A DNA stretch of 64,000 nucleotides, from the UHGV virus genome UHGV-0112899. One strand, given 5' to 3'. The translations under genes and the position numbers were made by a program. Each line of letters opens with the position of its first letter. Within the stretch, counting starts at the first letter, position 1. The notes beneath the pieces were generated by a model that had not been told where the DNA came from, searched no databases, and worked only from the letters and a program-made list of their open reading frames with translations. Positions 43,648-64,000 of the stretch are shown here, one piece after another. Origin of the DNA: a virus.

Positions 43648-44093
43648 TGGGTGACTTTGGAAATTATTTCATTTTTATCATGGCATTTGTTGCCGTTATT
43701 GACCGTTTCTTATTTCGTCGCAAGAGTGTTGATATTTTGAGCATTGGCGAAGCTGTAGTGAAAGAGTCTGCTATAGCGTTTCCCGTGTCGCTTCGCGTTA
43801 AGCGAAGCTGGGTAAGCAATGCACAAATCGAATATTGGTTGCAGGACTTGAAAAATCCATCTGTGGTTATTTCGGGGAAAACAAGACCAGTTGACGCATC
43901 AAAACGCGGTGAGAGAGAAGAATATTTGCTCATCGACACGAAATATCTTGAGCCAGCGAAGTGGGATCTAAAGGTCACATTGACTAACGGTAATTGCCGC
44001 CTGAATCCGCTTTATCGCATTTTCCCTATCAATGACTGCATAGAACGTCAGTTTATGATTGAAAAGTGTGAAGGAGACTGGAATGTCAAATAA
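43647..44093 (+). CDS. membrane protein, possible antiholin (LydB-like)
   Basis: 148 aa with N-terminal hydrophobic helix; TAATG coupling to the holin-like gene. Confidence 0.3.
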   Translation: MGDFGNYFIFIMAFVAVIDRFLFRRKSVDILSIGEAVVKESAIAFPVSLRVKRSWVSNAQIEYWLQDLKNPSVVISGKTRPVDASKRGEREEYLLIDTKYLEPAKWDLKVTLTNGNCRLNPLYRIFPINDCIERQFMIEKCEGDWNVK

Positions 44094-44700
44094 ATCTAAT
44101 TATGTTCTTCTTAATTATGATGAGTTAAACGAAAAGGGGCTGGCAAAACTCGTCAAAGAAATCGGTAAAGGAGGCTACAAGATAGCGAGGGTGATCCCCG
44201 CCAGTAATGGCAGGAAGAAAGACGGGATCATGACGCGCACGTTTACCCTTATCGGAATCGATGAGCAGACGATGGACGTTCAGGTTAATGATACTGGTGA
44301 TATTTCTGGTGTAAAACTGAACGGAAAAATTGTTCCTTTCAAGCCAGTTAAAACGCTGATGGCTTTAGGGCAATCACTGGCTGCTTTATTTAATAAAGGC
44401 GCATCATCATTTCAGAAATCATTGGCGCGTAAGTTAGCTCGTGCGGCGAAAGATATTGATGATGGGAATAAGAAAATAAAAGGCGTTAAGTCCAATGCGC
44501 AGAAACTAGCAGAGGCAAAGGAATCTCGCGATGCGATCCGCGAGGATATTGAAAGGGCCAAAGAAAAATTAAATCAGGTGCAAGGTAATTCAGACCGCGC
44601 AACAAGAGAAACTGAAATCATTAGAACCGAGATGGCGCAGGAACTGGCGAAAACTCGCGTATTGAAAGAAGAAATAGCGCGCCTGGAGGAAGATGCATGA
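44083..44700 (+). CDS. Hdf-like protein (homologous to a DarA-like fragment)
   Basis: 205 aa; coiled-coil segment resembles part of the downstream 641-aa protein; AGGAG RBS. Confidence 0.35.
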   Translation: MSNKSNYVLLNYDELNEKGLAKLVKEIGKGGYKIARVIPASNGRKKDGIMTRTFTLIGIDEQTMDVQVNDTGDISGVKLNGKIVPFKPVKTLMALGQSLAALFNKGASSFQKSLARKLARAAKDIDDGNKKIKGVKSNAQKLAEAKESRDAIREDIERAKEKLNQVQGNSDRATRETEIIRTEMAQELAKTRVLKEEIARLEEDA

Positions 44701-46622
44701 TAAAGAAACCTATTCGAATAAATATCCAGTCCACTTTTGCAGATACGCTCACTGGATATACGCCTAATCGTTGGGTGGCGGAAGATATCACCGAGGATGA
44801 TTTACTTATCGAGCCTGCGACGCTGGAAGATATCGAGCTGGCCTATATGGGCAACGAAATTTTGGTAACTACCAATGAGGCAATGTTCGAAGCTTTAACC
44901 ACAACAAAATTGCGGTTAGCGCAAACAATGCGAGCATTTGTCCGGGCGCTTAATCGCGGCCTGAATGGCACTGACATTGCTGCGGGTACGGATGAGGCAG
45001 GTGAATATGAAGACGGACGTAATAGTATCGGTGGGGCAATCATTGGGCGCGTGCGCCGGGTTGCTAATATCCCTGTTGTAACAGCACAAATACCTCTAAC
45101 CGATGGACAAACGACAAGCATAATTTTCCATTCTCCAACCGCAGACGGCACAAGAATTAAAGGGGATGACGAGCTGGTTGCGTTTCAGTTTCTTCTTAAC
45201 AAAAGAAACGTTACGCATGTTGTTGCGCCAATCGGTGGGCGTGATGTATCTCTGAGCCAGGTGTGTCAGGCGCTTTCTAACCTCATTGAGCGTAACAGTG
45301 CAAAATTCAAAAAAGCAAAGGAGCGCCAGGACAAAATGAAGGCTGATATTGAGGGGTATCTCAATGAAGCCGACAAGCTGGCAGAAGAACGTTCTGTGCT
45401 GATTGAGCAGGTTGAAGACGCACAGCGGGGGCTGGCAGAGAAACGCTCAACACTCAATGATATGCAGAATAAATTAGACGCACAAAAAGCCCTTAACGGG
45501 GAATTGCAGGCTAAGCGCGATAATTTATTGTCAGCTAAGAGCCAAGGAACTAAAGAGCGTGCCTTCAATGATCAACTGCGACACATAAAACATAATCTTG
45601 CTACAGAAGGCCAAACAACGCTGGATAATGGTGCTGTAGTTAAGTATGTCACGTCAGGCAGTGATAGCTTTGTCACGATTGAGGCACCAGAAGGCAATTT
45701 CAGTATTGATGTCAGTGCTGTTAAAGGTGGGAGTTCAGCGGACGCTGCAACCAAATTACTTAAAGCCTATCGTGAACATAATGCTGATCAATACAAAGTG
45801 GATGTGTTGCCGGGCCAGCCTGAGCCAACTGATCAGCCGCAGCCTGAACAGGAGCCACAACCAGCATCACATCCTGATCCCCTGGAGGTTGGTAAATATC
45901 GCTATGCGCTACAATCTCGCCCGGCGGGTGTTGGTGCGGTTCCTGAAGGAAATAAAGCTGTACTTGACCGTCCTGATCAGGCTGATCCGTATTACGAATA
46001 TGCTCGTCACGGAATCATTACGTATGACCGCAAACTGACAGACGAAGAAGTCAGTCAGTACGAATTACGCTATCTGCCTGATGACGATGAACTGAGAGGG
46101 ATGGCGAACGAGCTGGTTGCGTCCAGCATGGTAAAACATATTGATGGCTATGTAGATCTGTTTGGAAGTGACCTGAAAACATTCAAGGCGCAAGTTAAAA
46201 TTCTTTTCCGCAAAGCGTTCCCGAACGTGGCATATCCACTTGGTGATGGGGAGAACCTTTTCATTATGGACGTGTATAACGCCCTTCAAAATCATTCAAG
46301 CGAAGTAAAAACAGATCCTGTAGTTGAGCCAGAATCGCAACCTGCACCAGCACCAGAACAGGAGCCGGAGCCAGAAGAAGCGGGTGAATCAGCAAGCGAA
46401 GCTGACCAGGAAGCAGATAAAGCGCTTGAGTACCTGAAATCCGTTCCGGAGCAGTTCACATCCCGCGATCTGACGGTCATAAGTGCTGAACTTGATCATG
46501 TGCAGGAAGCTGCAAACGCTCTTATCAGTGCTGGTCGATATGACGAGAACGAAGCAACTGTAGGTGCAGCCGTTGACTACCTGATCAATATTCTGGCTGA
46601 AATTCAGCAGGGAGGTGCTTAA
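44697..46622 (+). CDS. DarA-like antirestriction protein
   Basis: 641 aa; size and operon position match the P1 darA operon; no catalytic motif seen. Confidence 0.4.
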   Translation: MIKKPIRINIQSTFADTLTGYTPNRWVAEDITEDDLLIEPATLEDIELAYMGNEILVTTNEAMFEALTTTKLRLAQTMRAFVRALNRGLNGTDIAAGTDEAGEYEDGRNSIGGAIIGRVRRVANIPVVTAQIPLTDGQTTSIIFHSPTADGTRIKGDDELVAFQFLLNKRNVTHVVAPIGGRDVSLSQVCQALSNLIERNSAKFKKAKERQDKMKADIEGYLNEADKLAEERSVLIEQVEDAQRGLAEKRSTLNDMQNKLDAQKALNGELQAKRDNLLSAKSQGTKERAFNDQLRHIKHNLATEGQTTLDNGAVVKYVTSGSDSFVTIEAPEGNFSIDVSAVKGGSSADAATKLLKAYREHNADQYKVDVLPGQPEPTDQPQPEQEPQPASHPDPLEVGKYRYALQSRPAGVGAVPEGNKAVLDRPDQADPYYEYARHGIITYDRKLTDEEVSQYELRYLPDDDELRGMANELVASSMVKHIDGYVDLFGSDLKTFKAQVKILFRKAFPNVAYPLGDGENLFIMDVYNALQNHSSEVKTDPVVEPESQPAPAPEQEPEPEEAGESASEADQEADKALEYLKSVPEQFTSRDLTVISAELDHVQEAANALISAGRYDENEATVGAAVDYLINILAEIQQGGA

Positions 46623-46990
46623 TGGCTATCTCTGTTTTAGAACGCCTGAAATTAGGTAAAGAGCTATCAGATCTAATGCAGGCGCAGAAAACCGCGCCAG
46701 TATTGCAACGCGTCTCAATTGGTAAGCAGATTGTTGATGTGATGCTTAAACTGGGGCTTGGGGCTGCGGCCCAATCAGTATCGGATCCGCAGGCGCAGCC
46801 AGATACTGTTGCAGGTGACATTCCTAAGATAGTGACAGACTTCCTTGGAGGTGCATTCACAAAGTCCACGCAAATGGAATTTATTGATGCGCTACGTGGG
46901 ATCTCAAACTATGTAGGCGAGTTCCTTACGTTGGAACAGGCTAAAGAGCAGACCATAAGCTGGGTGAAAGCCAACGGTTATGCAGGGTAA
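46622..46990 (+). CDS. DdrA-like small protein
   Basis: 122 aa, TAATG-coupled to the DarA-like gene. Confidence 0.35.
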   Translation: MAISVLERLKLGKELSDLMQAQKTAPVLQRVSIGKQIVDVMLKLGLGAAAQSVSDPQAQPDTVAGDIPKIVTDFLGGAFTKSTQMEFIDALRGISNYVGEFLTLEQAKEQTISWVKANGYAG

Positions 46991-47083: not shown

Positions 47084-50000
47084 TTGAACAAGTCAGTTAC
47101 TTCCGCGCTATCCGAAGCAGCAGACATTAACAGTGTTATTGCGCTGGTTTCTTCATTAGAGAGGCGAGAAACACGCCAGGGGCGCAGTAGTTACGTAGTC
47201 ACCAGTAAAGGGGCAGAGGTAAAGACGGCTTTTAAGGTCGTTGATGCCAGCAGTCTGATCATTTCGAACAACCTTGACGGTACGATTAATCCGGCCTTCC
47301 CGGAAGAACTCCAACCACGAGATCGTACCCGGCTATCCAGCAAACTCCAGGTTAACCGTATTGCCTCCAATTTACGCCCGGCACAATTAACGGATTCCGG
47401 TATGAGCAGCCACGGAGCGCCGATAGTTGGTCCGGACAACGTTGTTGAATCCGGCAACGGAAGGAGTATGGGTATCTGGCGTGCCTATGAGCAAGGACAG
47501 GCGGATGAGTATCGCCAGTACCTGATCGACCATGCGAAAGAGTTTGGTCTGAATCCTGACGAAATTTCGCAAATGTCTATGCCCGTACTGGTGCGAGAAA
47601 GACTCACAGATGTAGACCGCGCTCAATTTGCCCGCGATTCAAACATTAGCGATCTGCAAGAGATGGCAGCAAGTGAAAAAGCGTATGCGGATGCGCAATT
47701 TCTCACTGAGAGCGTCATGGCGCTATTTAATCCTTCAGATGATGGAAATCTGCTGGCGCGGTCCAATGATGCGTTTATTCGTGCGTTTTTGCGCGAAATT
47801 GGCGATACAGCGACGGCAGGCTTGCTTACTGCCGATGGGCGTCCCACGAAACAGCTTATCGATCGCATCCAGAATGCAATTTTTGCCAAAGCGTACAAGG
47901 ATGAAAGGCTTGTTCGGTTGGTGGCGGAAGAGCCAGATCCGGAAATGCGTAACATCCTTACCGCATTAAATACGGCAGCCAGCGATTTTGCGCAAATGCA
48001 GTCGCTTTCAGGTGATGTTCACCATGACACGGTAACCGGACTGGTAGACGGTATAGAGCAATTGAATGGTCTGGATAAACAGGCTATTGCCGCGCTACAG
48101 GAAGCAATTAACCTTGTTCGTGAAGCAAAAGATAACGGTCAGGCAGTAGAAGAGGTGATCGCACAGCGTGGATTGTTTGGAGATAGCACTCCGGAAGCAG
48201 AAGCGCTTGCTCTGTTTATTGTTGCCAACAACCGAAGCGCTAAGCGAATGGGGGCAGCTTTCAAGAAACTGGCGCAAAAAATTAACGATGAACTTATTCA
48301 CCAGCAACAAGCGTTAGGCGATATGTTCGGCGGCGGAGATGTCGATCTGCGTAGCATTTTATCTGCCGTTTCTGATGAAATTGAGGCTGAGTATGGCGAA
48401 GGTAAAGGGCTTAATTTCGCCATGTTCGAATCGGTTTCGGGAGATGTCGAACCATACATTTCAAAGCTAATTGCTGATGCGACCAGCGTGGAGGACTTGA
48501 TCCGAATCGTGAAGGCGTCAGAAAAAATTAAGGAGTCCGCAAAAAAAATAAAGCGCAATGTATTTTTGGAACTTGGTTTTTATATTCGCAATGTCACCGT
48601 TAATGAGATTAAGGCGTGGGCTAAACGTTATGGATACAGCAACGCTGTGTTAACAACGATGTTATTGTCTTATCAACGCAGCAATTTTTATGCTAACGCA
48701 CTGCGTGACGCGATTGAAAAAGGAGATGAAGCTCCTTCACTCGCAGATGAAAGAAATATTGATTGTGACATTGAAACGTTTTGCAATATGTCAGAAGAAG
48801 GCGTGCCCGCTGAACAATTTATACGTGTTTTACATAATGCAGCAAAACATATTCCTGATGACTTTAGCATTGATGAATTGCGCAATGGTTGTCTTGTTTG
48901 GTTAGGTAACTATTTAAAATCTCCAGCGTCTATTGCAGAGAAAACAGCTTTAAGATTTAGAAAGGAAATGAATAAAGCTGGAAGCGCAGAAGAGATGGTG
49001 CGCATAATCCAAAATACTTTGAAGTTATTCAAAAAGAGCTTGCATAATATCAACGATATTATGGCGGCTGGTAGGAAAATAACAGCCAGCGTCGGAGTTA
49101 GCTCCGAACTAACGGCAGAGGAGATCGCTGATGCGTATATTGAGACACTTGTCAGGCTTAAGGAGATAGTGGAATTAGCAGAGCATTCCTCATATTACGG
49201 AATCAAGGAGCGCGTTGACTTTACTATAGAACAAATCAATAAAGTTAGGTCAAATAAGGAAAAACTCACTGACTACCTTGCTGAGGTTTTGCACCAGAAT
49301 GATCATGGGATTGGATATGATCTGAAAAAAATGCTTGTTTTTAATCTGGACATACCGGAAGACTTGCAAGCAGAATTATATGAAATAGCTTCATTAACAC
49401 GTGGACAAAAAGCCTATCCTAATGCGCTTGAAAATGTAGTACATAAAAAAGTCAGAGCCGCATTTGACATGATTCTTGAATCGTCAAATGTGTCACATGA
49501 CCAGTCTAAGGAATGGAGTCGTGGGATTGCTATTTCTGATGAAGCAGAGCAGTTAAGTGGTCACGATAATGAAACTTTCTCCCGTAAAGCATACAGTATT
49601 CGCGAGACAATTGAAAAAGCCTATATTATTTCAGGAGGGACTTTATCTACATTAAAAAATATTAACCACAAGAACAATGTTCGTGCTTTTGCAAGTCGAA
49701 ATGGGAATATAACAATTGATGCTAATAGTGATCATGAGCGTGTATTATGGCATGAAATAGGTCACCATATAGAACATTCAAATCCCCATCTATTGGAGAG
49801 GGCCAAAGCCTTCATTAAATCAAAAACTAACGGTAAAGTTTCTTATCATAATATTGGTAGCCGTGGCAGTGCTGAGTATTTGGTGCGAACCGACCTAAGT
49901 CATGGATATATGTCTAAAATTTATATGGAAAATACGGTAAGTTCTGTCAGCGGCAGATTTATATCAAAGCCACCTGCATTAAGCAATTGCAGGGCGACTG

Positions 50001-50125
50001 AGATTTTTTCTATGGCCTTGCAGATGTATGCCGATCCTGAGCAGGCGACTAACTCTGTATTAAACAATGACGGCGTGCTGGAATTTTTCTTGGGATGTAT
50101 GAAGGAGTTGCAAAATGAAGTATAG
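47084..50125 (+). CDS. DdrB-like large protein with HExxH motif
   Basis: 1013 aa; HEIGHH at about nt 49751-49768; operon position matches ddrB; TTG start. Confidence 0.4.
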   Translation: MNKSVTSALSEAADINSVIALVSSLERRETRQGRSSYVVTSKGAEVKTAFKVVDASSLIISNNLDGTINPAFPEELQPRDRTRLSSKLQVNRIASNLRPAQLTDSGMSSHGAPIVGPDNVVESGNGRSMGIWRAYEQGQADEYRQYLIDHAKEFGLNPDEISQMSMPVLVRERLTDVDRAQFARDSNISDLQEMAASEKAYADAQFLTESVMALFNPSDDGNLLARSNDAFIRAFLREIGDTATAGLLTADGRPTKQLIDRIQNAIFAKAYKDERLVRLVAEEPDPEMRNILTALNTAASDFAQMQSLSGDVHHDTVTGLVDGIEQLNGLDKQAIAALQEAINLVREAKDNGQAVEEVIAQRGLFGDSTPEAEALALFIVANNRSAKRMGAAFKKLAQKINDELIHQQQALGDMFGGGDVDLRSILSAVSDEIEAEYGEGKGLNFAMFESVSGDVEPYISKLIADATSVEDLIRIVKASEKIKESAKKIKRNVFLELGFYIRNVTVNEIKAWAKRYGYSNAVLTTMLLSYQRSNFYANALRDAIEKGDEAPSLADERNIDCDIETFCNMSEEGVPAEQFIRVLHNAAKHIPDDFSIDELRNGCLVWLGNYLKSPASIAEKTALRFRKEMNKAGSAEEMVRIIQNTLKLFKKSLHNINDIMAAGRKITASVGVSSELTAEEIADAYIETLVRLKEIVELAEHSSYYGIKERVDFTIEQINKVRSNKEKLTDYLAEVLHQNDHGIGYDLKKMLVFNLDIPEDLQAELYEIASLTRGQKAYPNALENVVHKKVRAAFDMILESSNVSHDQSKEWSRGIAISDEAEQLSGHDNETFSRKAYSIRETIEKAYIISGGTLSTLKNINHKNNVRAFASRNGNITIDANSDHERVLWHEIGHHIEHSNPHLLERAKAFIKSKTNGKVSYHNIGSRGSAEYLVRTDLSHGYMSKIYMENTVSSVSGRFISKPPALSNCRATEIFSMALQMYADPEQATNSVLNNDGVLEFFLGCMKELQNEV

Positions 50126-51204: not shown

Positions 51205-52890
51205 ATGGCAACGAAAGACAAAAACAAAGGCTTTCTGTCGGCATTGAAGAAAGCCTTCAACAGTGGCGATGTCACGCCTGCTGATCCGGTCGTTTTTACA
51301 AGCGGTCATAGTGTCGTTGCGCGTTCTGGTCTGTCTGCTTTACGTCCGGGTATCCTGGGTGGCAATAGCGATGGCATGACAAGCGCGGCAGATACAGTAT
51401 CAATTTCGGCAGAACTGCCCGGCGACCGCCTGCAAAAATACAACATACTGGAGACGATGGCGAAAAGTCCGACTATCTCCACAGCATTAAACATTCACAT
51501 TGCGCATTCTCTGGCTCCATCAAAAAAAACAGGCCTCGCATTTATTCTCGCTCCGAAAAATGGGGCAGATAAGGAGGCTGTAAGTCGATGTGAGGAATTG
51601 ACCGCTGATTTAAGCTCAATGATTAATGATGGCCTGCCATCGTGGGCCATGATCATGGCTATTTTCGGTGTGTCGTATATCCGTCCATATGCAGAGCAAG
51701 GGAAGGGGATAACTGGAATTGAGTCGAGCTATTACACGCTCCCTCATTTCGTTCAGGAGTTTTATCGCGGTAGCCAACTTGTCGGATTCAGCGGTGATTA
51801 CATTCTGGATACGCATACTTTGCGCAGAGTTATAACCGAACCATGGAATCTGGTTTCCATGAAAAACCCGTACTGGACGCCTCAGCATAATGTAATGCCA
51901 GTAACTTACGGCACTAAAGGCTATTCCTTGCTTAGTGAACAGCAGGACAAGCCGTTAATGGAGACGCAGAACTACGGTACGTCATTTCTTGAATACAGTT
52001 ATGAACCCTACCTGAATTTATGTGCCGCGCTTGCTGCGCTGAAAGCAACGCGAAACAACGCTGCAAAAATTGATCGCCTGATTGCACTCACAACGAACAC
52101 GATAGATCCGGTAAATGCGGCGAATTATACGCGCGGGGTCAGCCAGGCACTGAAGCGTCATAGCGACCTCGTAGCGCAACGGTCGATTAATTCTAATGCT
52201 CTCCCATCTGTACTTAACCATCTGATACCCGTCATGGGGGATGGGAAGAACGGGATCACCATTGATACGCAATCTATACCCGCAGATATCAGTGGTATCG
52301 AAGACGTTATGTTTCATCTCCGACAGCTCGCGGCAAGCCTCGGTATTGACGCAACAATGCTTGGCTGGGCTGATCAGATGAGTGGTGGACTTGGAGAAGG
52401 CGGTTGGCAGCAAACAGCTATCCAGGCCGCCTTACGCGCGAACTGGATCAGACAGGCCGCCCAGCGGACTATTTATCGGCTTCATGACATTCACCTCGCT
52501 TATAAATACGGGAAGGTTTACACCGAAAAAAACCGTCCTTATGACGTGCAATTCAACTCAATGAACACAGCTATCCAGGAAGAGGAAAACCGAGAGCTGG
52601 ATGCGCGCGCCAACTTCGTAGCTGTCATCTCGCAAATAATGGACCAGATCCAGAACAACCCGAAACTGGCGGGTAGCGACGCGTTTATGCGTTATCTGTT
52701 CACCGAACAGCTTTGTATCGACGATGACACTCTCAACGTAATGATCAAAGAGTTTAAAGCGAATGAATCAGAGCAAAACAACGAGCATGGTATGTACGAA
52801 TCCGCGCCGTTGTCGTCCGGTGACGATCCGGAAAACTGGACGCAAGAACAATTAATCAACTTTGCAAAATTTGTGATGAGCAATAATTAA
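51205..52890 (+). CDS. putative portal protein
   Basis: 561 aa without Walker motifs, followed by a protease/scaffold-like gene; assignment by context. Confidence 0.35.
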   Translation: MATKDKNKGFLSALKKAFNSGDVTPADPVVFTSGHSVVARSGLSALRPGILGGNSDGMTSAADTVSISAELPGDRLQKYNILETMAKSPTISTALNIHIAHSLAPSKKTGLAFILAPKNGADKEAVSRCEELTADLSSMINDGLPSWAMIMAIFGVSYIRPYAEQGKGITGIESSYYTLPHFVQEFYRGSQLVGFSGDYILDTHTLRRVITEPWNLVSMKNPYWTPQHNVMPVTYGTKGYSLLSEQQDKPLMETQNYGTSFLEYSYEPYLNLCAALAALKATRNNAAKIDRLIALTTNTIDPVNAANYTRGVSQALKRHSDLVAQRSINSNALPSVLNHLIPVMGDGKNGITIDTQSIPADISGIEDVMFHLRQLAASLGIDATMLGWADQMSGGLGEGGWQQTAIQAALRANWIRQAAQRTIYRLHDIHLAYKYGKVYTEKNRPYDVQFNSMNTAIQEEENRELDARANFVAVISQIMDQIQNNPKLAGSDAFMRYLFTEQLCIDDDTLNVMIKEFKANESEQNNEHGMYESAPLSSGDDPENWTQEQLINFAKFVMSNN

Positions 52891-55705: not shown

Positions 55706-56412
55706 TGGATATCTGCATTCTCGAAAAGCCATCAATGACCAGCATTGAGATCGCGGAGCTGGTGGGAAAACGTCATGACAATGTGAAACGCACTATTGAG
55801 ACATTAGACAAAGGTGGCGTTATTGTTCGTCCTCAAATTGAGGTTTTCGAAAAAATCAATAACTTAGGACTACGACGTAGTGTTGAGGCTTACGTCTTCG
55901 AAGGCGAGCAAGGCAAGCGCGATAGCATTATCGTCGTCGCGCAGCTCTCTCCCGAATTCACCGCCCGGCTGGTGGACCGCTGGCGCGAACTGGAAGAACA
56001 AGTACGCCAGCCGTTGACCGAAATAGAGATGATCGCTGCAATGGCTGCAAATGCAGTTCAGCAGCAAAAGCGGCTTCATGTTGTTGAGTCAAAGGTTAGC
56101 CAGGTTGCTGAAACCGTCGAGCAGATCAAGAAGGGCAACATGCCAGAAGGTTACATTGGCTATCGTCAGTTAGCGGCGAAATGCGGCCTGACTGAAGCCA
56201 AATGCCGCAACCTGGTCAACGCTTACCGGATTCCCACAGATACGCATGAGTTTATGACGCCAGAGGTGGTATTGTCGCGTCGTACTATTGTGGCCTTATC
56301 TCCCTTCATGAATGCCTTTACCCTGATGATGTCGGAGGCTGAACACCGAGGAAAACGCTGGTATCACCCAAGGATGGGACAATTCCAGGTGATCGGTTGG
56401 GGAGGCGAGTGA
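55705..56412 (+). CDS. Rha-family phage regulatory protein / antirepressor-like, paralog of 4621-5562
   Basis: SIEIAELVGKRHDNVKRTIETL; ~105-bp and ~110-bp stretches near-identical to the first copy. Confidence 0.65.
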   Translation: MDICILEKPSMTSIEIAELVGKRHDNVKRTIETLDKGGVIVRPQIEVFEKINNLGLRRSVEAYVFEGEQGKRDSIIVVAQLSPEFTARLVDRWRELEEQVRQPLTEIEMIAAMAANAVQQQKRLHVVESKVSQVAETVEQIKKGNMPEGYIGYRQLAAKCGLTEAKCRNLVNAYRIPTDTHEFMTPEVVLSRRTIVALSPFMNAFTLMMSEAEHRGKRWYHPRMGQFQVIGWGGE

Positions 56413-56609
56413 TGGATATCATGCAGGCGGTAAAAAAAATCAGGGAAGGACAGGCTGAAGTGTGCCGCCGTAAAGCATGGAGTGTTGGTATATGGATCTG
56501 GCCTGATAATTGCTCTACTACCGGATGGTTTTGTATTAATGGATGCCAGATCCGGGAAGTCGATTTATCGACGGCGGATGCAGTCGGTAATGATTGGATC
56601 GTAACTTGA
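56412..56609 (+). CDS. small protein homologous to the C-terminal domain of the 4621-5562 product
   Basis: VCRRKAWSVGIWIWPD...DWIVT vs VCRRASWPESVWVWPE...DWIVS; TGATG coupling; GGAGG RBS. Confidence 0.5.
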   Translation: MDIMQAVKKIREGQAEVCRRKAWSVGIWIWPDNCSTTGWFCINGCQIREVDLSTADAVGNDWIVT

Positions 56610-56617
56610 AGTGTGAT

Positions 56618-56641
56618 GCCCCGGCCTGGCCGGGGCTTTTT
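56618..56641 (+). terminator. rho-independent terminator
   Basis: stem gccccgg/ccggggc followed by T-run. Confidence 0.55.
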
Positions 56642-57132
56642 CATGCCTCATTAGTTGAGGTTGCTGCGTCGCCGACAGGTAACAGAGCTGTATTGCGTGG
56701 TTCGCCAGCAGGCCAGCGATAGCCAGACACTCTTGATGTTGGGAATGCGCGAATATTAACAGCATCCCCCTGGTTCCCACCCAAGACAAGCAGATCGCCA
56801 TTGGCGCGGCGTCCGACAACAAAGCCTACATGCCCACCGCCTGCGCGAGTAAATACAACGATACATCCGTATGCCGGTGTATCTAATTTCTCGCCCCAAT
56901 CCAGATAGGATTTTGCCGACTCAAATCTTGTTGAGCGGATGCCTACACGTTCCAGCATTGCACCGACAAATGCTGCGCACCACGGCGTTTCATCGTCTTT
57001 AATTCCACCGCGCTTAATATCCCGCCAGAACTGGACGATCTCAGGATTGTGTTTCGCTCCTTTTATTTCGGTGACTCCAATATTTTTACGGGCTTCAATA
57101 AGCCAGCGAGGTTCATTATTGATCATAATCAT
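56641..57132 (-). CDS. putative peptidoglycan hydrolase (TIGR02594-like / CHAP-like)
   Basis: 163 aa; GVTEIKGAKHNPEIVQFW...TPWCAAFVG signature with candidate catalytic Cys. Confidence 0.45.
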   Translation of the reverse strand: MIMINNEPRWLIEARKNIGVTEIKGAKHNPEIVQFWRDIKRGGIKDDETPWCAAFVGAMLERVGIRSTRFESAKSYLDWGEKLDTPAYGCIVVFTRAGGGHVGFVVGRRANGDLLVLGGNQGDAVNIRAFPTSRVSGYRWPAGEPRNTALLPVGDAATSTNEA

Positions 57133-57319
57133 GCTCCGAATGAAAAAAGAGCAATAACTATGTTGAGAATGTGATTTCTATTACACCAAACATTATTAAA
57201 CGGCATTCATCTTTAACTTTATTCAATGTATTATCTAACAGAAAAGTTAAGTTGCGCTAAGTTAATGATAACACTGGTTATTATTTGTTTGCGTTATTTA
57301 TTTGAGAAAAGAGAAAGTT

Positions 57320-57817
57320 ATGAAAAAAGCAATATTAGCGACTATTGTTTGTGCATTTGCATTATCAGGATGCGCTCCGGTTCAGACATACAACAAGCCT
57401 CAGCAAGTAAAACAGTTTGTTAAACGCCCAGCATTCCCTGTAGAGGAATATCAGGCATTGCCGAAAAAAGGCACAGGTAAGGTTAAGGGGGAATTATTTG
57501 GAGTAACTCGCGGAGGGGATGTGAAGATTGGTGCTGGCTCCAATATCATACTGCGTCCGTATACTTCATATATCAAAAATACCCCCAAAATTGATTACGA
57601 CACTCAGACCTTAGAAATAATCGACGGCAGGGTTGCGGAATATGACAGAACTGTCCTGACTGATGCTCAAGGCAAATTTGAGTTCGAAAACGTACCACCA
57701 GGCCAGTATGAAGTGATTGGTTCGTTCAGTTGGTATGCTGGAAATTTCCCGCAAATCGTTCTTCTGAACAAAATCATTACCGTTAAGAACGGTGATGTTA
57801 TCCAGGTTCAACCATGA
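57320..57817 (+). CDS. lipoprotein with carboxypeptidase-regulatory-like domain
   Basis: signal peptide with lipobox ALSGC; TDAQGKFEFENVPPGQYEV beta-sandwich-like motif. Confidence 0.55.
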   Translation: MKKAILATIVCAFALSGCAPVQTYNKPQQVKQFVKRPAFPVEEYQALPKKGTGKVKGELFGVTRGGDVKIGAGSNIILRPYTSYIKNTPKIDYDTQTLEIIDGRVAEYDRTVLTDAQGKFEFENVPPGQYEVIGSFSWYAGNFPQIVLLNKIITVKNGDVIQVQP

Positions 57818-57928
57818 TCCCCTTTTGAGTAAGAACCTTCGGGGTGTGATTCTGCGAAATTAACACACTCCATACCCTCTCAAACCGTACCGCTTAAGGC
57901 GGATTTAACGGTTTTGAGGGGGCTTCCT

Positions 57929-60900
57929 TTGGACAAAATAATTGATTCAATTAGCCAGGCCACCAGCATTGGGGCGCTGATTGAAATTGTTAGTCGGTTG
58001 CATAAACCGCGAGCTGTAGTGACCTTTGGCGTTAAGAAAGTCGATGGCGTCAGTATTCAGAAAACACGCCGGGCAGCAAACAACGCCGCAGTAAATCTTC
58101 TTAATTCCCTTCCGCCTGGCTTCGATGGGGCGAAATTAACTGACGAACAGCGCCAGATTCTTGCCGGGTATACCGGTGAAGGCGGCCTGACAGATGGTGA
58201 GGGCAGCCAATACGAATACTATACGCCACAGTTTATGGCAGAAGGTATATGGGATCTCTTCGGCGACTACGGTATTGATAGCGGTCACGTACTGGAACCG
58301 TCAGCAGGCACAGGTATTTTCCAGGAGACAAAACGGCAGGGCATGATAATGACCAGCGCCGAACTGTCTCCGATCTCCGGTCGAATAAACCAGCTTTTGC
58401 ACCCGGAAGATGATGTGAATATCGGGGCGTTTGAGGCGCTGGCGGCGAAAGATGCAATGTATGACCACGCAGTTGGTAACGTACCGTTTGGCGAAGGGCG
58501 TTCCGGCGTCGCCGGGCTTGATCCGGCATATGCAAACGAGAAGAACGTTGGCAATTATTTTGTGCTGCGCACGATCGACAAGGTTAAGCCTGGTGGACTA
58601 ATTGTATTGGTGGTGCCGAATGGCATGACCGATGGTACGAAATACAAAAAATTGCGCGATAAAGTCAGCCGTAAAGCGGAATTTTTGGGCGCGCATCGTA
58701 TGCCTTCTGGTACGTTCAGCGAATCCGGTACAGATACCGTGGTGGACGTATGGGTATTGCGTAAACACCCGGAAGCCTTTCTGGAGATGATCCCCGATAC
58801 GGATGATTCGACGCTCAAATCGGCAAACGTCCTTTGGGATACCTTCCTCAAAGGAAAATGGTTTACAACCGAAGGGAAGCGATTTGTTTACGGCGATATG
58901 GAGCGTACCAGCTTCCGCAATACCCTGGTGGTGAAAAAGGACGGTCGTGTATCCAATGAGTCGATGAAAACCGCTCTATCGCGCCGCTTTGAAAGCCGCA
59001 TTAATTGGGATTTGCTCGGCGTAACTACTCAGGCATGGCAGGGCGCGAAAGTGGGCGATAAACGCCTTGTAGGCGGCATCTGGCATGAGTTTGATGGCCT
59101 GAAATGGGTCAAGGACACGACAACCAAATCCTCCGCGCTTGATGTAAGCCGATATGGTGTTTCGACGTTTGGCGATCTGCAGATCGCGTTTCAGTCAACA
59201 AATGGCATTCTGGCGTTGTCATGGGACCAGATATCGGCGATCGCGTCCGACTATCCATCGGTTATCAGTGATGAAGTAGCGGCAATGATTCGCTTTGCTG
59301 GCAAGCAGAGAGAAAAAGACAGAGAACGCGTTATGCGCGGCGCACTGATAGGGCAGTTGATCAACAAGGCGCTTGATAAGCGTAATCTGGGGGAAAATGT
59401 TGATGATGAACTTGCTGATGCCGCGCGCCTGGCGGAAGCCGAAATTGCGAAGTATGGTCCGCCGCACGCGATTAAGCTGAATGGGATTGCTGAAGCTGGC
59501 GCTAAAAACTGGATGACTTTCACTGGCAACGTGAAACAGGACGGCTCTGCTTCTGACCTCCTTGCTGGACGACTTGATGTAACGGATGGTGCTGCCGGTA
59601 TTGACTTTACACGCCCGGAACAAGTTGTAACCCACCTTTTCAGTGACGTGGCACTTAATCCAATCACACTGGACGATTTTCGTGAGGCGTTTGCTGGCGA
59701 ACTGCCAGGAGACGACGATGCTGCTCTGGAATACCTGGCGAAATTTGATGATATCGCTATTGATGGGTATGGCTGCCTGCTGCCGATGGACCGCGCCACC
59801 AGCGGCGATATTGCAACCAAAACAGCATTGCTGGTGGGCTGGCGTGATGCGTCAACAGGTGAGCAGAAAGCGAACTTTGAGCGTCAGTTGGCGAAAATCG
59901 AAGAGAAACGCATTTTTACGCCGCTAAATAAAGTCACCGTTAATCTGAACGCCCGCTGGCTGGATCGCCGCTTGATAAAAGAGTTCCTGGCAGAGCAGGG
60001 CTATGACGAGTTTAAGTATACAGAACCCGACCTTAAGGTTGAGGACGGCATTCTGGTATCTCCGGACGATTACGAAGGTAAGGACGGGGTATTTACTGGC
60101 TATCAACTACGAACCGTAAACGGCAAAAACGGGAATGAGTTCAAGAAGGCCAACAATAAAGACGGCTTCCTGAACCAGTTAGAAAACTACCTGAACGGCA
60201 TTAAACCGCGTGGGCAGAACGCTAACGAGTACCTGGATAAGATTGCTCAACTGGAAATTAGCTTCAACGACTGGTTACGCACTCACCCGCAGGCTGATCA
60301 GATAGCCCGCGACTATAACGACGCATTTAATGGCTTCATCCCGTTTACGCATTCTGACGCACCGCTTGGCCTGGAGGGGATTAGTGGGAAGCGCATTCCT
60401 CTGACTTATCAGAATGAAGAAGTTCGTCGCTTATCAGAAGATGGGCGCGGCATCATGGGATTTGGCACCGGGCTGGGTAAAACCACGACCGCGCTTGCGC
60501 TTGAAGCGTATAACTTCGAAACAGGTCGCACTAAACGCACGTGTATTGTTGTTCCGAAGGCGGTTTATCAGAACTGGTATCACGAGGCACAGAGTTTCTA
60601 CAGTGCTGATGCCTTCGCCAATATGATGTTTATCGGTTTGGATGAAGTTCGTGATGACAGCGGAAATATTCTGACCGCGCCGGTGCTTGATGAAAATGGC
60701 GAACCACGCCTCGACAGTAACGGGCTGCCTCTTACCCGAAATGTTGTGAAAGAGTCCGCCAGTGCCGTTATCGTTCAGCGCATGAACATGATCCCGTCGT
60801 CAAATTGGCGAACGGTCATCATGACAAAAGAGCAATTCGCGTCTATCCCGCTACGAGAAGAAACCATTGAGGAAAACTCACAGCAAGCGGTCTTTAATGC

Positions 60901-63900
60901 TGTGGAAATGGGGCGTCTTGACCTGGCATCTGGCAAACACCGTGACGCGCAGAAGAAGAACAAAATTAAGGACCAGGCCGCAAATACCGGTACAACGAAG
61001 AAGCAGAATATCCCGTACTTTGAGGATATGAACTTCGATAGCGTGATAGCCGACGAAGGGCATAACTACCGCAACTCCTTTAGCGCCGGGCGCGAAGCGG
61101 GGCAACTGGCATATTTGCCTAACCCGGCAGTATCCAAAATGGCTCGTGATATGGCTGTAAAAGCTGCGTACATGATGAAACGCAACAACGGGCGTGGTGT
61201 GGTTATGCTGACGGCAACACCGCTGGTGAACAGCCCGATTGATGCTTTCAACATGCTGTCTACTGTCATTCCGCAGGAAGAGTGGATGCGCATGGGCATC
61301 ATTACGCCGGATGATTTCGTTCGCGTGTTCGGTAAAACAGCCACAGTTCAGGTTCAGAAAATTTCCGGTGAGGTGGAAGAGAAGCAGGGGCTGGTGGGCT
61401 TCCAGAACCTGGATGGTCTGCGTGGTATTTTCCATCGCTGGACTACTCTGAAGACTGCTGCGGACGTCGGGGCGACGGTAAAAATCCCTGATATTGTCGA
61501 GAATACCTTGCAGATCCCGATGACAGGAGAGCAAGAGGCCATTTACGAAGAACTTCGTAAGCGTGCACAGGAGTTAAGTAGTAAAGATGCGCTGACGGTC
61601 GATGAAAACGGGCATATCACAAACGAAAAACCGGATGATTTCATCTTCTCCATCATCCGCGACATGGATAAGGTTGCTATAGATCCTGATCTGTATGCCA
61701 GTGCGATTACATTCCAGTTCCCCGTTGAGCTTGCAGACAAGGTAAAAGCTATTGCTGATGCCCTGCCAAAAGTAGCTGGCGGTAAAGTGGCAGATGATGC
61801 GGACGAGGCCGAAGAAGATGGCGCTGGTGGGCTGGTCAGTACGCGTACCAGCAAGGTAGTGAAGACCACCTTTAGCGAACATCCGTCGCATGTTGAAATA
61901 CGTGCTGGCATTGAACTGGAAGCTGAAATACTGAAGGCCATTGCGGCTGCCGGTATTGATATGCAGCAGGTATCACACCCCATCCCGCCGAAGTATGCCG
62001 CGCTGATCGAAAACCTTCGTGAAGGTCTGAAGAACGGTAAACAAATCGTCTTCATTGATGAAAAAGCCCAGCACCAGAAGCTGCGCCGTATTATTGCCAG
62101 TGCACTGCAAATGCCGGAGCAGGAGATAGGCATTATCAATGCGACGACAGTTAGCCAGGCTGGCGGCGTCAAGCTGAAGAAGGTGAATAAGCCGACTGAA
62201 CCTACGCCAAATAAAAACGGTGAATACAAAGAAGGCGCATGGGAAACCTACTACAGCAAACTTGCCCAATATGAGGATTATCTCTCAGCTAAAAATGATG
62301 CTGGCCTTGAGGGCATGGAAGGTATTGCCGCCGACTATAACGAAGGTCGCACGCGCATCATAATCTGTAACAAGAAGGCTGAAGTAGGTATTAACTTGCA
62401 CATCGGGACAACCGATATCCACCATCTGACACTACCCTGGACTCCTGCCAGTATCGACCAACGTAATGGGCGCGGCGCTCGGGTAGGCTCACCACAAGAA
62501 AAGGTCAATGTTCACTACTATTGTGGCAAAGGCACATTTGATGACTTCCGTCTGGATACGCTGAAACGTAAGAAGGACTGGATCAATATGGTGATGACCT
62601 CCGACATGTCAGAGATCGCCAATGGTGATGCGGATGACGCAGATGAACGCGCCATTATGCTGGCGGCAAATCCGGAAGAACGCCGTGCAATCATGAGTCG
62701 TCAGGCGCAAGAGCGTGAAGAACGTCTGAAACTGAAAGCCCTACGCGAAGCCAATAATGCTCTCGATAACTACCTGAAAGCGGCGAATGCTGCCGGGAAA
62801 GATATCGGCATGATGGAGACAGAACTGAAAAGCGCGATGGAGCAGGTAGAGCATTACCAGCGCAATCTTGACGACCTGATTAAAGCGGGGACGAACAGGA
62901 ACGGGCAGAAATATGTTCTGGAACAGTTGCGAGACTACAGAAAACGTGTGCGGGAGCTACGCTTTGCGATCACCAGAGCTAAAGACGCTGACACCGTTAT
63001 GAAACGTTCTCGTGGTGATCTGGAACGTGCGATTAAAGCCGGGGTTCTGGAGCTTGATGCCGATGTATTGCAGAACCCACAGGAGTATGTACGCACTGAG
63101 AAAAATATCTTGTTGCACAAGGACAGCCATTATCGCGCGATCATCGATGAGAATCACAATACGACAGCAATTGTTCGTGTTACCGCCATTGATGCGGAAA
63201 GGGGCGGGTGTACGTGCCGCATATCCTGGCTGGATGTGGCTAGTCGTTACTCTCGTTCTCCGGGTACGGCATTATTTTTGCCCTTTAACCTGATAATTGA
63301 ATCGGTAACCTTTGAAGAGGGAGTTGCAGAATCGCGTGAAACAGCTGCACGTGGTGTTCAATGCCACCAGCTATCAACAACACTTACGCGCGATCAGTTC
63401 TATGATGCTATTCGCAATGGGGTAATGAATGTCACTGCCGGGAAGCCTGGTAGAGTATGGGGCGGTGGTTCAGCTATTAAATACTGGGCTTATCGCACCG
63501 ATGATGGTCAGATTGCACTGTCATCGGCTTATGATGGCGTAATAGGTCAAAAAATCGGGCGAGCATCGGATATAGCGCCTGAGCGGTGGATTTACCCTGA
63601 TGGCAACGATGAGGCGCTGAAGCGTGAAGTGGCAAAAATACAAGCCAGTGATAACCCGCTGAATATCGTGGACGGCGAGGGATTCCTCCAGGCATTGTAT
63701 GGGTATGATTACATCCAGGGAATGCAGGCATGGGGCGCACAGGCAACGATGGATGATGTTGTCCAGGAGTTCGAAAACTGGATGGCTGGGCGTGGTCTGT
63801 CAGGTCGTTCGCTTAATAAAGTCACTTCTGAAGATATTCTTAGCTTGTTCCGCAAACCGTCCGGAGAAGGTCTGGAATCATTCTGGAGGACCGTGCTGGC

Positions 63901-64000
63901 ATACCGTTTATTCCAGGGCAGAATGAAAGCCTTTAGCAATATCGATGATATTGAACGGATGTTTAATCAGGTCAAGATCGCGAAAATTAAGACGAAGATC
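57929..64000 (+). CDS. giant N6-methyltransferase plus SF2 helicase fusion protein (DarB-like), 3' end beyond window
   Basis: single open frame over 2000 codons; EPSAGTG and NVPFG methyltransferase motifs; GTGLGKTT, DEGH and QRNGRGAR helicase motifs; TTG start after GAGGGGG is tentative. Confidence 0.6.
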   Translation, partial: MDKIIDSISQATSIGALIEIVSRLHKPRAVVTFGVKKVDGVSIQKTRRAANNAAVNLLNSLPPGFDGAKLTDEQRQILAGYTGEGGLTDGEGSQYEYYTPQFMAEGIWDLFGDYGIDSGHVLEPSAGTGIFQETKRQGMIMTSAELSPISGRINQLLHPEDDVNIGAFEALAAKDAMYDHAVGNVPFGEGRSGVAGLDPAYANEKNVGNYFVLRTIDKVKPGGLIVLVVPNGMTDGTKYKKLRDKVSRKAEFLGAHRMPSGTFSESGTDTVVDVWVLRKHPEAFLEMIPDTDDSTLKSANVLWDTFLKGKWFTTEGKRFVYGDMERTSFRNTLVVKKDGRVSNESMKTALSRRFESRINWDLLGVTTQAWQGAKVGDKRLVGGIWHEFDGLKWVKDTTTKSSALDVSRYGVSTFGDLQIAFQSTNGILALSWDQISAIASDYPSVISDEVAAMIRFAGKQREKDRERVMRGALIGQLINKALDKRNLGENVDDELADAARLAEAEIAKYGPPHAIKLNGIAEAGAKNWMTFTGNVKQDGSASDLLAGRLDVTDGAAGIDFTRPEQVVTHLFSDVALNPITLDDFREAFAGELPGDDDAALEYLAKFDDIAIDGYGCLLPMDRATSGDIATKTALLVGWRDASTGEQKANFERQLAKIEEKRIFTPLNKVTVNLNARWLDRRLIKEFLAEQGYDEFKYTEPDLKVEDGILVSPDDYEGKDGVFTGYQLRTVNGKNGNEFKKANNKDGFLNQLENYLNGIKPRGQNANEYLDKIAQLEISFNDWLRTHPQADQIARDYNDAFNGFIPFTHSDAPLGLEGISGKRIPLTYQNEEVRRLSEDGRGIMGFGTGLGKTTTALALEAYNFETGRTKRTCIVVPKAVYQNWYHEAQSFYSADAFANMMFIGLDEVRDDSGNILTAPVLDENGEPRLDSNGLPLTRNVVKESASAVIVQRMNMIPSSNWRTVIMTKEQFASIPLREETIEENSQQAVFNAVEMGRLDLASGKHRDAQKKNKIKDQAANTGTTKKQNIPYFEDMNFDSVIADEGHNYRNSFSAGREAGQLAYLPNPAVSKMARDMAVKAAYMMKRNNGRGVVMLTATPLVNSPIDAFNMLSTVIPQEEWMRMGIITPDDFVRVFGKTATVQVQKISGEVEEKQGLVGFQNLDGLRGIFHRWTTLKTAADVGATVKIPDIVENTLQIPMTGEQEAIYEELRKRAQELSSKDALTVDENGHITNEKPDDFIFSIIRDMDKVAIDPDLYASAITFQFPVELADKVKAIADALPKVAGGKVADDADEAEEDGAGGLVSTRTSKVVKTTFSEHPSHVEIRAGIELEAEILKAIAAAGIDMQQVSHPIPPKYAALIENLREGLKNGKQIVFIDEKAQHQKLRRIIASALQMPEQEIGIINATTVSQAGGVKLKKVNKPTEPTPNKNGEYKEGAWETYYSKLAQYEDYLSAKNDAGLEGMEGIAADYNEGRTRIIICNKKAEVGINLHIGTTDIHHLTLPWTPASIDQRNGRGARVGSPQEKVNVHYYCGKGTFDDFRLDTLKRKKDWINMVMTSDMSEIANGDADDADERAIMLAANPEERRAIMSRQAQEREERLKLKALREANNALDNYLKAANAAGKDIGMMETELKSAMEQVEHYQRNLDDLIKAGTNRNGQKYVLEQLRDYRKRVRELRFAITRAKDADTVMKRSRGDLERAIKAGVLELDADVLQNPQEYVRTEKNILLHKDSHYRAIIDENHNTTAIVRVTAIDAERGGCTCRISWLDVASRYSRSPGTALFLPFNLIIESVTFEEGVAESRETAARGVQCHQLSTTLTRDQFYDAIRNGVMNVTAGKPGRVWGGGSAIKYWAYRTDDGQIALSSAYDGVIGQKIGRASDIAPERWIYPDGNDEALKREVAKIQASDNPLNIVDGEGFLQALYGYDYIQGMQAWGAQATMDDVVQEFENWMAGRGLSGRSLNKVTSEDILSLFRKPSGEGLESFWRTVLAYRLFQGRMKAFSNIDDIERMFNQVKIAKIKTKI

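Follow-up and report, generated by a model that had tools for sequence, protein, structure and literature searches.

A stretch of 64 000 nt from UHGV virus genome UHGV-0112899 (the whole of which we call the window) ends within a reading frame that stays open for more than 6 kb, and the question it raises is what so large a protein, in which an adenine methyltransferase is joined to a helicase, would do for the element that encodes it. The comparisons described below make us highly confident that this frame represents darB of a D6-like, P1-family phage-plasmid and that its product serves in counter-defence against host restriction, identity and biological role being taken here as one claim.

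Identity and extent of the open reading frame

Translation of positions 57929–64000 (+) gives 2024 sense codons without a stop, and the frame runs past the window end. Since the probability of a stop-free run of 2024 codons by chance is ~(61/64)^2024, or about e^-97, the length of the frame is not attributable to chance. The sequence-only reading of this DNA had described a frame of more than 6 kb carrying the strings EPSAGTG, NVPFG, GTGLGKTT, DEGH and QRNGRGAR, and both the uninterrupted frame and all of these strings are found in the translation. The nearest in-frame stop on the 5′ side lies at 57830, and the start assigned here is TTG at 57929–57931 (+), 6 nt past the sequence GAGGGGG (57916–57922), the only alternative in-frame start 5′ of 57929 being TTG at 57914. 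This TTG, previously proposed as a tentative start, turns out to be the annotated darB start in Escherichia phage D6 and in two plasmid relatives (L003 and L004), and residue 1 of the window protein pairs with Met1 of P1 DarB in the alignment. Because full-length orthologs have 2278–2280 aa, about 255 C-terminal residues are expected past the window end, in keeping with the earlier remark that the C terminus is missing.

In megablast against phage genomes the frame matched D6 with 92.3% nucleotide identity and 100% query coverage; the matched feature is orf15 (ASR76325.1), a coding sequence of 2278 aa annotated in GenBank as 'defense against restriction; similar to P1 gene darB', to which the window protein is 95% identical across all 2024 aa. 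The BLASTP comparison proposed with the sequence-only reading, which had named a P1 DarB-type protein, gave 43% identity to P1 DarB (YP_006479.1, 2255 aa) over 2001 aligned positions (E = 0), with the alignment collinear from residue 1 (query 1–1936 against subject 1–1924). In PHROGs there is a full-length match to phrog_1685 and a further match to phrog_10089, 'DarB-like antirestriction', and homologs of the partner proteins with which DarB works in P1 are encoded elsewhere in the window (see below). Altogether 943 protein homologs were retrieved. The best cluster in a large protein collection (P0001, 2279 aa, 4384 member sequences) is 98% identical to the window protein, and an Escherichia coli cluster that is 43% identical to it (P0091, 2255 aa, 16340 members) matches P1 DarB at 2224 of 2255 positions.

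When coverage of at least 80% of window positions 56000–64000 was required, 103 PLSDB plasmids carried near-identical DNA, as did 91 of the 5426 complete E. coli genomes, almost always on non-mobilizable plasmids of about 90 kb; near-identical copies of D6 orf15 itself occur on D6-like plasmid prophages of E. coli, Salmonella and Shigella. Over its remaining length the window keeps this collinearity with D6, the identity there being about 83–84%. Considering the identities to D6 and P1, the plasmid matches and this collinearity, we take the window to be a piece of a D6-like, P1-family phage-plasmid. The gene is thus already annotated in D6 and very common, and there is no new kind of system in the window; about a hundred sequenced E. 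coli plasmids carry darB in nearly identical form, and it offers little by way of discovery. Its value is comparative, in that an ortholog only 43% identical to P1 DarB retains every catalytic motif intact, an argument for a need of both enzymatic activities.

The ratio of non-synonymous to synonymous substitution rates (dN/dS) against four relatives is 0.05–0.09 and uniformly low, which identifies the frame as real coding sequence under purifying selection. Nor do the two domains belong to separate genes: the protein is a single polypeptide in P1, in D6 and on hundreds of plasmids, and P1 DarB has been seen as a 250 kDa virion protein (PMC9024508). Judged from its sequence, darB is therefore a real, single and intact gene.

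Domain architecture and its conservation

Within the window, the following parts of darB can be distinguished (residue numbers are those of the window protein).

57929–57931 (+), TTG start codon of darB; the same TTG in D6, L003 and L004, aligned with Met1 of P1 DarB
57929–58018 (+), residues 1–30, putative equivalent of the capsid-targeting sequence, by alignment to P1 DarB residues 1–30
58019–58210 (+), N-terminal helical region with an LPD36-type GxGG motif (GEGG, residues 83–86) in a YTGEGG block; G-x-G-G in 121/121 homologs
58211–58828 (+), predicted gamma-class N6-adenine DNA methyltransferase domain; TP cap, motif I, motif IV, Pfam N6_Mtase and PDB 7eew
58829–60430 (+), middle region, residues 301–834, largely helices plus small beta elements; no family assigned
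60404–62578 (+), predicted SWI2/SNF2-type ATPase/translocase module, residues 826–1550; Pfam and motifs I, II, III and VI
62579–64000 (+), start of the fast-evolving C-terminal third, residues 1551–2024 of about 2279, truncated at the window end

The fusion of an N6-methyltransferase to a superfamily 2 (SF2) helicase, which had been read from the motifs, is confirmed by the Pfam families N6_Mtase and SNF2, and the helicase can now be specified as SWI2/SNF2-type. On the methyltransferase side, EPSAGTG at residue 123 (nt 58295) is the S-adenosylmethionine-binding motif I, NVPFG at residue 184 (nt 58478) contains motif IV (NVPF, residues 184–187), and a YYTP string provides the TP cap at residues 99–100. 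A scan of the N-terminal 324 aa alone gave Pfam N6_Mtase 25.4 bits (cut-off 20.4), and a scan of the whole protein gave 19.8 bits, below the cut-off; the sole direct sequence match in the PDB, to 7eew (a type I M subunit), is weak (E = 3.6e-4). On the ATPase side, GTGLGKTT at residue 846 (nt 60464) is motif I, with K851, DEGH at residue 1042 (nt 61052) is motif II, TATP at residue 1095 is motif III and QRNGRGAR at residue 1511 (nt 62459) is motif VI. Here the Pfam families SNF2-rel_dom (51.6 bits, cut-off 24.9, residues 840–1050), ResIII (24.5 bits) and Helicase_C (24.5 bits, cut-off 23.5, residues 1464–1520) together span residues 826–1520.

Across 121 aligned family members, with identities as low as 39%, there is hardly any variation in motif I, N[VI]PF, Walker A, DE[GA]H, TATP or QRNGRGAR (N[VI]PF in 121/121, QRNGRGAR in 117/121). 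Conservation by region is about 65% in the methyltransferase and 70–80% in the ATPase lobes, 40–59% in the 500-aa middle and lowest, at 20–30%, in the C-terminal third. The alignment thus separates a conserved methyltransferase–SNF2 engine from a rapidly diverging C-terminal third. Neither the middle region (residues 301–834) nor the C-terminal region (residues 1541–2024) has a Pfam match even at E = 1, and a fold search with confident models of both returned no informative match, the middle having none and the match of the C-terminal barrel being generic. The C-terminal model, with a predicted local distance difference test (pLDDT) value of 87.9 and a predicted template-modelling (pTM) score of 0.73, places three long helices at residues ~1582–1704, followed by a predicted SH3/Tudor/BAH-like beta-barrel at residues ~1720–1793 and then further helices.

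P1 DarB has the same domain order, that is, an N-terminal targeting region, an LPD36 GxGG motif, an N6-adenine methyltransferase with NVPF and an SNF2 ATPase, but differs from the window protein in that its C-terminal third is only about 20–30% identical and its N-terminal 30 aa are poorly conserved. A single polypeptide that joins LPD36 to an EcoKI/TaqI-like adenine methyltransferase and to a SWI2/SNF2 ATPase likewise characterizes the methylase-helicase dyad of 'polyvalent proteins', which are delivered with invading DNA and are found in phages and conjugative elements (PMC5512222); a DarB-like protein of Serratia phage Parlo (3764 aa) is another example of this dyad type (PMC6606913). We assigned LPD36 at the level of the motif (GxG[GAS]), without an LPD36 profile and following the published definition (PMC5512222), and on such motifs and profiles all the features that define the DarB-type dyad (Iyer et al., PMC5512222) appear to be present in the window protein. 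Unlike many polyvalent proteins, which often bear extra effector domains (peptidases, ParB-like nucleases, UvrD), it yielded none that Pfam or fold searches could detect.

Proposed mode of action and its alternatives

In P1, Hdf is required for the packaging of all Dar proteins. Packaging there is ordered and Hdf/DarA-dependent (PMC12810830), and DarB itself is a 250 kDa head protein present at about 40 copies per virion, its N-terminal 30 residues being sufficient to target a reporter to the capsid (PMC9024508). Deletion of P1 darB leads to sensitivity to EcoB and EcoK (PMC9024508, PMC11109961), and Dar works only in cis, on co-packaged DNA (PMC12707154); antirestriction from plasmid-borne darB proved to be a DNA (Chi/EcoKI-site) artefact (PMC11109961). 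Iyer et al. regard DarB as the archetype of the methylase-helicase dyad and proposed translocation-coupled methylation of entering DNA (PMC5512222).

By analogy with P1, we suggest that the window protein would be synthesized late and brought into the procapsid by its first 30 or so residues, for which we infer a capsid-targeting function, and that its entry would follow that of Hdf/DarA, DdrA and DdrB, with help from Ulx. Each head would receive about 40 copies, to be ejected with the DNA, and the ejected protein would act in cis, protecting only the DNA with which it was injected from type I restriction of the EcoK/EcoB kind. The SNF2 motor may then track along the entering duplex while the methyltransferase engages its adenines, with the outcome that the DNA would be modified or that type I complexes would be blocked or dislodged before translocation starts. 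The fast-evolving C-terminal third, as a candidate specificity module, may set which host systems are countered. The enzymatic part of this scheme, in which DarB is an active DNA-tracking enzyme, is put forward tentatively, as plausible rather than probable.

Several points weigh against the scheme or its extension from P1. The last about 255 aa of the protein and the ulx gene fall outside the window; the packaging and antirestriction role of the D6-type protein is carried over from P1 by analogy; and a count by eye in the aligned N termini finds residues 1–30 identical to the P1 targeting sequence at only 5 of 30 positions. No target-recognition or partner-binding domain was recognised in the window protein. 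The mechanism of P1 DarB itself was stated to be undefined as late as 2024–2025 (PMC11109961, PMC12707154). Finally, about 40 copies cannot coat 90 kb, and it is not obvious how a non-specific methylase would protect against EcoK and EcoB but not EcoA.

Of the alternatives, the one that survives best is that DarB is a passive shield or occluder, bound to the DNA and entering along with it, with the methyltransferase and ATPase folds serving only as DNA-binding scaffolds and catalysis being dispensable. The cis-only action of Dar is consistent with this, physical occlusion is favoured in reviews (PMC12707154), DarA and DarB have been described as binding the transferred DNA (PMC5512222), and methylation by DarB is not reported in the literature examined. 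However, considering that both catalytic centres are nearly invariant in the 121 homologs even at 39% identity, that the low overall dN/dS indicates strong purifying selection and that the sites of a 90 kb genome outnumber what roughly 40 copies per virion (PMC9024508) could cover, we disfavour a purely passive shield and regard it as unlikely.

It is very unlikely that DarB works primarily in phage DNA metabolism (replication, recombination or RapA-like transcription remodelling) or in epigenetic marking of progeny DNA, with antirestriction as a secondary effect. SNF2 ATPases such as RapA do work in transcription (PMC5512222), and darB lies near repL and an anti-repressor module, but P1 DarB is a head protein whose deletion gives the EcoB/EcoK sensitivity described above (PMC9024508, PMC11109961), and the Dar packaging genes are conserved in the window.

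An antirestriction role would also be mistaken if the protein were a defence or restriction enzyme carried by the plasmid and directed against other DNA entering the cell, resembling type ISP or type III enzymes or the helicases DrmD of DISARM, ZorD of Zorya and those of Dpd. The combination of a methyltransferase with an SF2 helicase is typical of restriction–modification (R-M) and defence systems, and PADLOC/NCBIfam gave local matches to DrmD, ZorD, DpdE and BrxH. These matches are, however, confined to the shared SNF2 core and lie far under the curated cut-offs (NCBIfam DrmD 43.2 bits against 610, DpdE 32.1 against 500, ZorD 17.5 against 1500), and we reject membership of these helicase families. 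We likewise reject a type I, type III or ISP R-M enzyme: Pfam found no nuclease or target-recognition domain family in the window protein or in the full-length P0001 protein, and no hsdS or res-type neighbour was found. Partner genes of the DrmD, ZorD or Dpd systems were not found adjacent to darB, which is orthologous to the P1 gene and placed among virion and late genes. With DISARM DrmD, Zorya ZorD and DpdE the window protein thus has the SNF2 ATPase core in common, whereas the biological role is the opposite one, counter-defence, and we consider a defence enzyme extremely improbable.

That the long frame is an artefact, or that a sequencing error fused separate methyltransferase and helicase genes, has a negligible chance of being true, given the uninterrupted gene of 2278–2293 aa in D6, P1 and the relatives fetched, the 103 plasmids, 91 complete genomes and 943 homologs already cited, and a dN/dS that is both uniform and low across a protein whose 500-aa linker is itself conserved at 40–59%.

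Leader hairpin, Dar partners and genome surroundings

Upstream of the darB start, RNA folding predicted one further feature.

57875–57922 (+), predicted 5′ leader stem-loop of darB, whose 3′ arm holds the Shine–Dalgarno (SD) sequence GAGGGGG (57916–57922)

The fold of 57860–57945 has a predicted energy of −27.6 kcal/mol (z = −3.9; 0 of 200 shuffles equally stable), and the predicted stem-loop pairs the entire SD sequence. Folded individually, the leaders of D6, L004, L007 and L009 also give SD-burying hairpins, with differing stem sequences (positions among the relatives: L001:8940–9000, L004, L007:2940–3000 and L009:2960–3000). Relatives at 95%, 79% and 69% protein identity have the hairpin together with a TTG start, whereas in the 57% relative and in P1 the start is ATG and the hairpin is missing; in P1, moreover, darB and prt/pro are divergent. 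Support for the hairpin comes from these individual folds, the RNAalifold alignment of five leaders being poor (stem sequences and lengths differ) and its covariation counts unreliable. The folds suggest a translational restraint on the giant protein that would be specific to the D6 clade. In a wider and more speculative proposal, which we consider possible but rather doubtful, the hairpin and TTG would jointly form a translational gate for late-phase or event-coupled synthesis of a 250 kDa protein, and the C-terminal third, with its predicted long coiled coil and SH3/Tudor-like barrel, would decide against which host restriction or BREX systems the protein is effective; in that case the systems countered by D6-type DarB would be another set than those countered by P1 DarB.

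No P1-type late promoter (AAGTKAYTN-N4-TAnnnT) was found directly upstream of darB, the only nearby match, at 57711, being without a −10 element, and a sigma-70 scan gave matches no more numerous than in shuffled sequence. No match to the P1 late-promoter layout lies directly upstream of lydA either. Strings resembling P1 late promoters (a −22 box AAGTKAYTN, 4 nt, then TAnnnT) are present elsewhere in the window, AAGTTACTGGCATTACATT and AAGTGACTTTCATTAATCT, at 51907 (−) and 8188 (−). A conserved box, ACACTCCATACC, just 5′ of the hairpin was considered as a repeated regulatory motif and rejected, as its six matches (at most 2 mismatches) against three expected are not significant.

The Dar partners form a cluster some distance upstream of darB.

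44059–44700 (+), hdf homolog; 40% identity to P1 Hdf, E = 1e-29, Pfam DarA_N 65 bits
44697–46622 (+), darA homolog; 41% identity to P1 DarA, E = 2e-144, Pfam DarA_N and DarA_C
46622–46990 (+), ddrA homolog; 34% identity to P1 DdrA, E = 6e-21, no Pfam match
47084–50125 (+), ddrB homolog, 1013 aa; 44% identity to P1 DdrB over 1036 positions, E = 0, Pfam ddrB-ParB 142 bits

The gene order is lydA and lydB, then hdf-darA-ddrA-ddrB, then the genes for the portal and the prohead protease. A full-length ddrB homolog is present (P1 DdrB has 995 aa), whereas D6 annotates a ddrB-like gene of 454 aa. In all six relatives examined with downstream DNA (P1, D6, L003, L007, L008 and L009) a Ulx homolog lies directly 3′ of darB, so that ulx would sit just beyond the window end and, with Ulx counted by way of these relatives, the partner set Hdf, DarA, DdrA, DdrB and Ulx would be the same as in P1. 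With D6 the window has in common the TTG start, the predicted 5′ hairpin, a TIGR02594/CHAP-type hydrolase gene upstream of darB and a dar operon elsewhere; the gene that follows darB in D6 and relatives is ulx-like.

The hydrolase gene (56641–57132, −), encoding a TIGR02594/CHAP-type peptidoglycan hydrolase and placed as is D6 orf16, has as its best PHROG the C-terminal part of a 'baseplate hub subunit and tail lysozyme' family. Between it and darB the window carries a lipoprotein gene that D6 lacks (57302–57817, +, probable ATG at 57320), whose predicted product has a signal peptide, the lipobox MKKAILATIVCAFALSGC and a CarboxypepD_reg/prealbumin-like domain (phrog_14789). This slot upstream of darB varies, holding another small open reading frame in L004 and a MazE/PemK toxin–antitoxin pair in L007, and has the look of a moron slot.

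P1 is known to be rich in Chi sites, and the D6-like element shares this richness: Chi (GCTGGTGG) occurs 30 times in the window against 1.6 expected from shuffles, 22 times on the plus and eight times on the minus strand (for example at 2867, 4884, 8503 and 61823), with six sites inside darB. The left end of the window appears, by its matches, to be a mosaic or inserted segment, positions 2–1592 being about 93% identical to Shiga toxin (Stx)-converting lambdoid phages and not to D6, the match to which starts at 1721.

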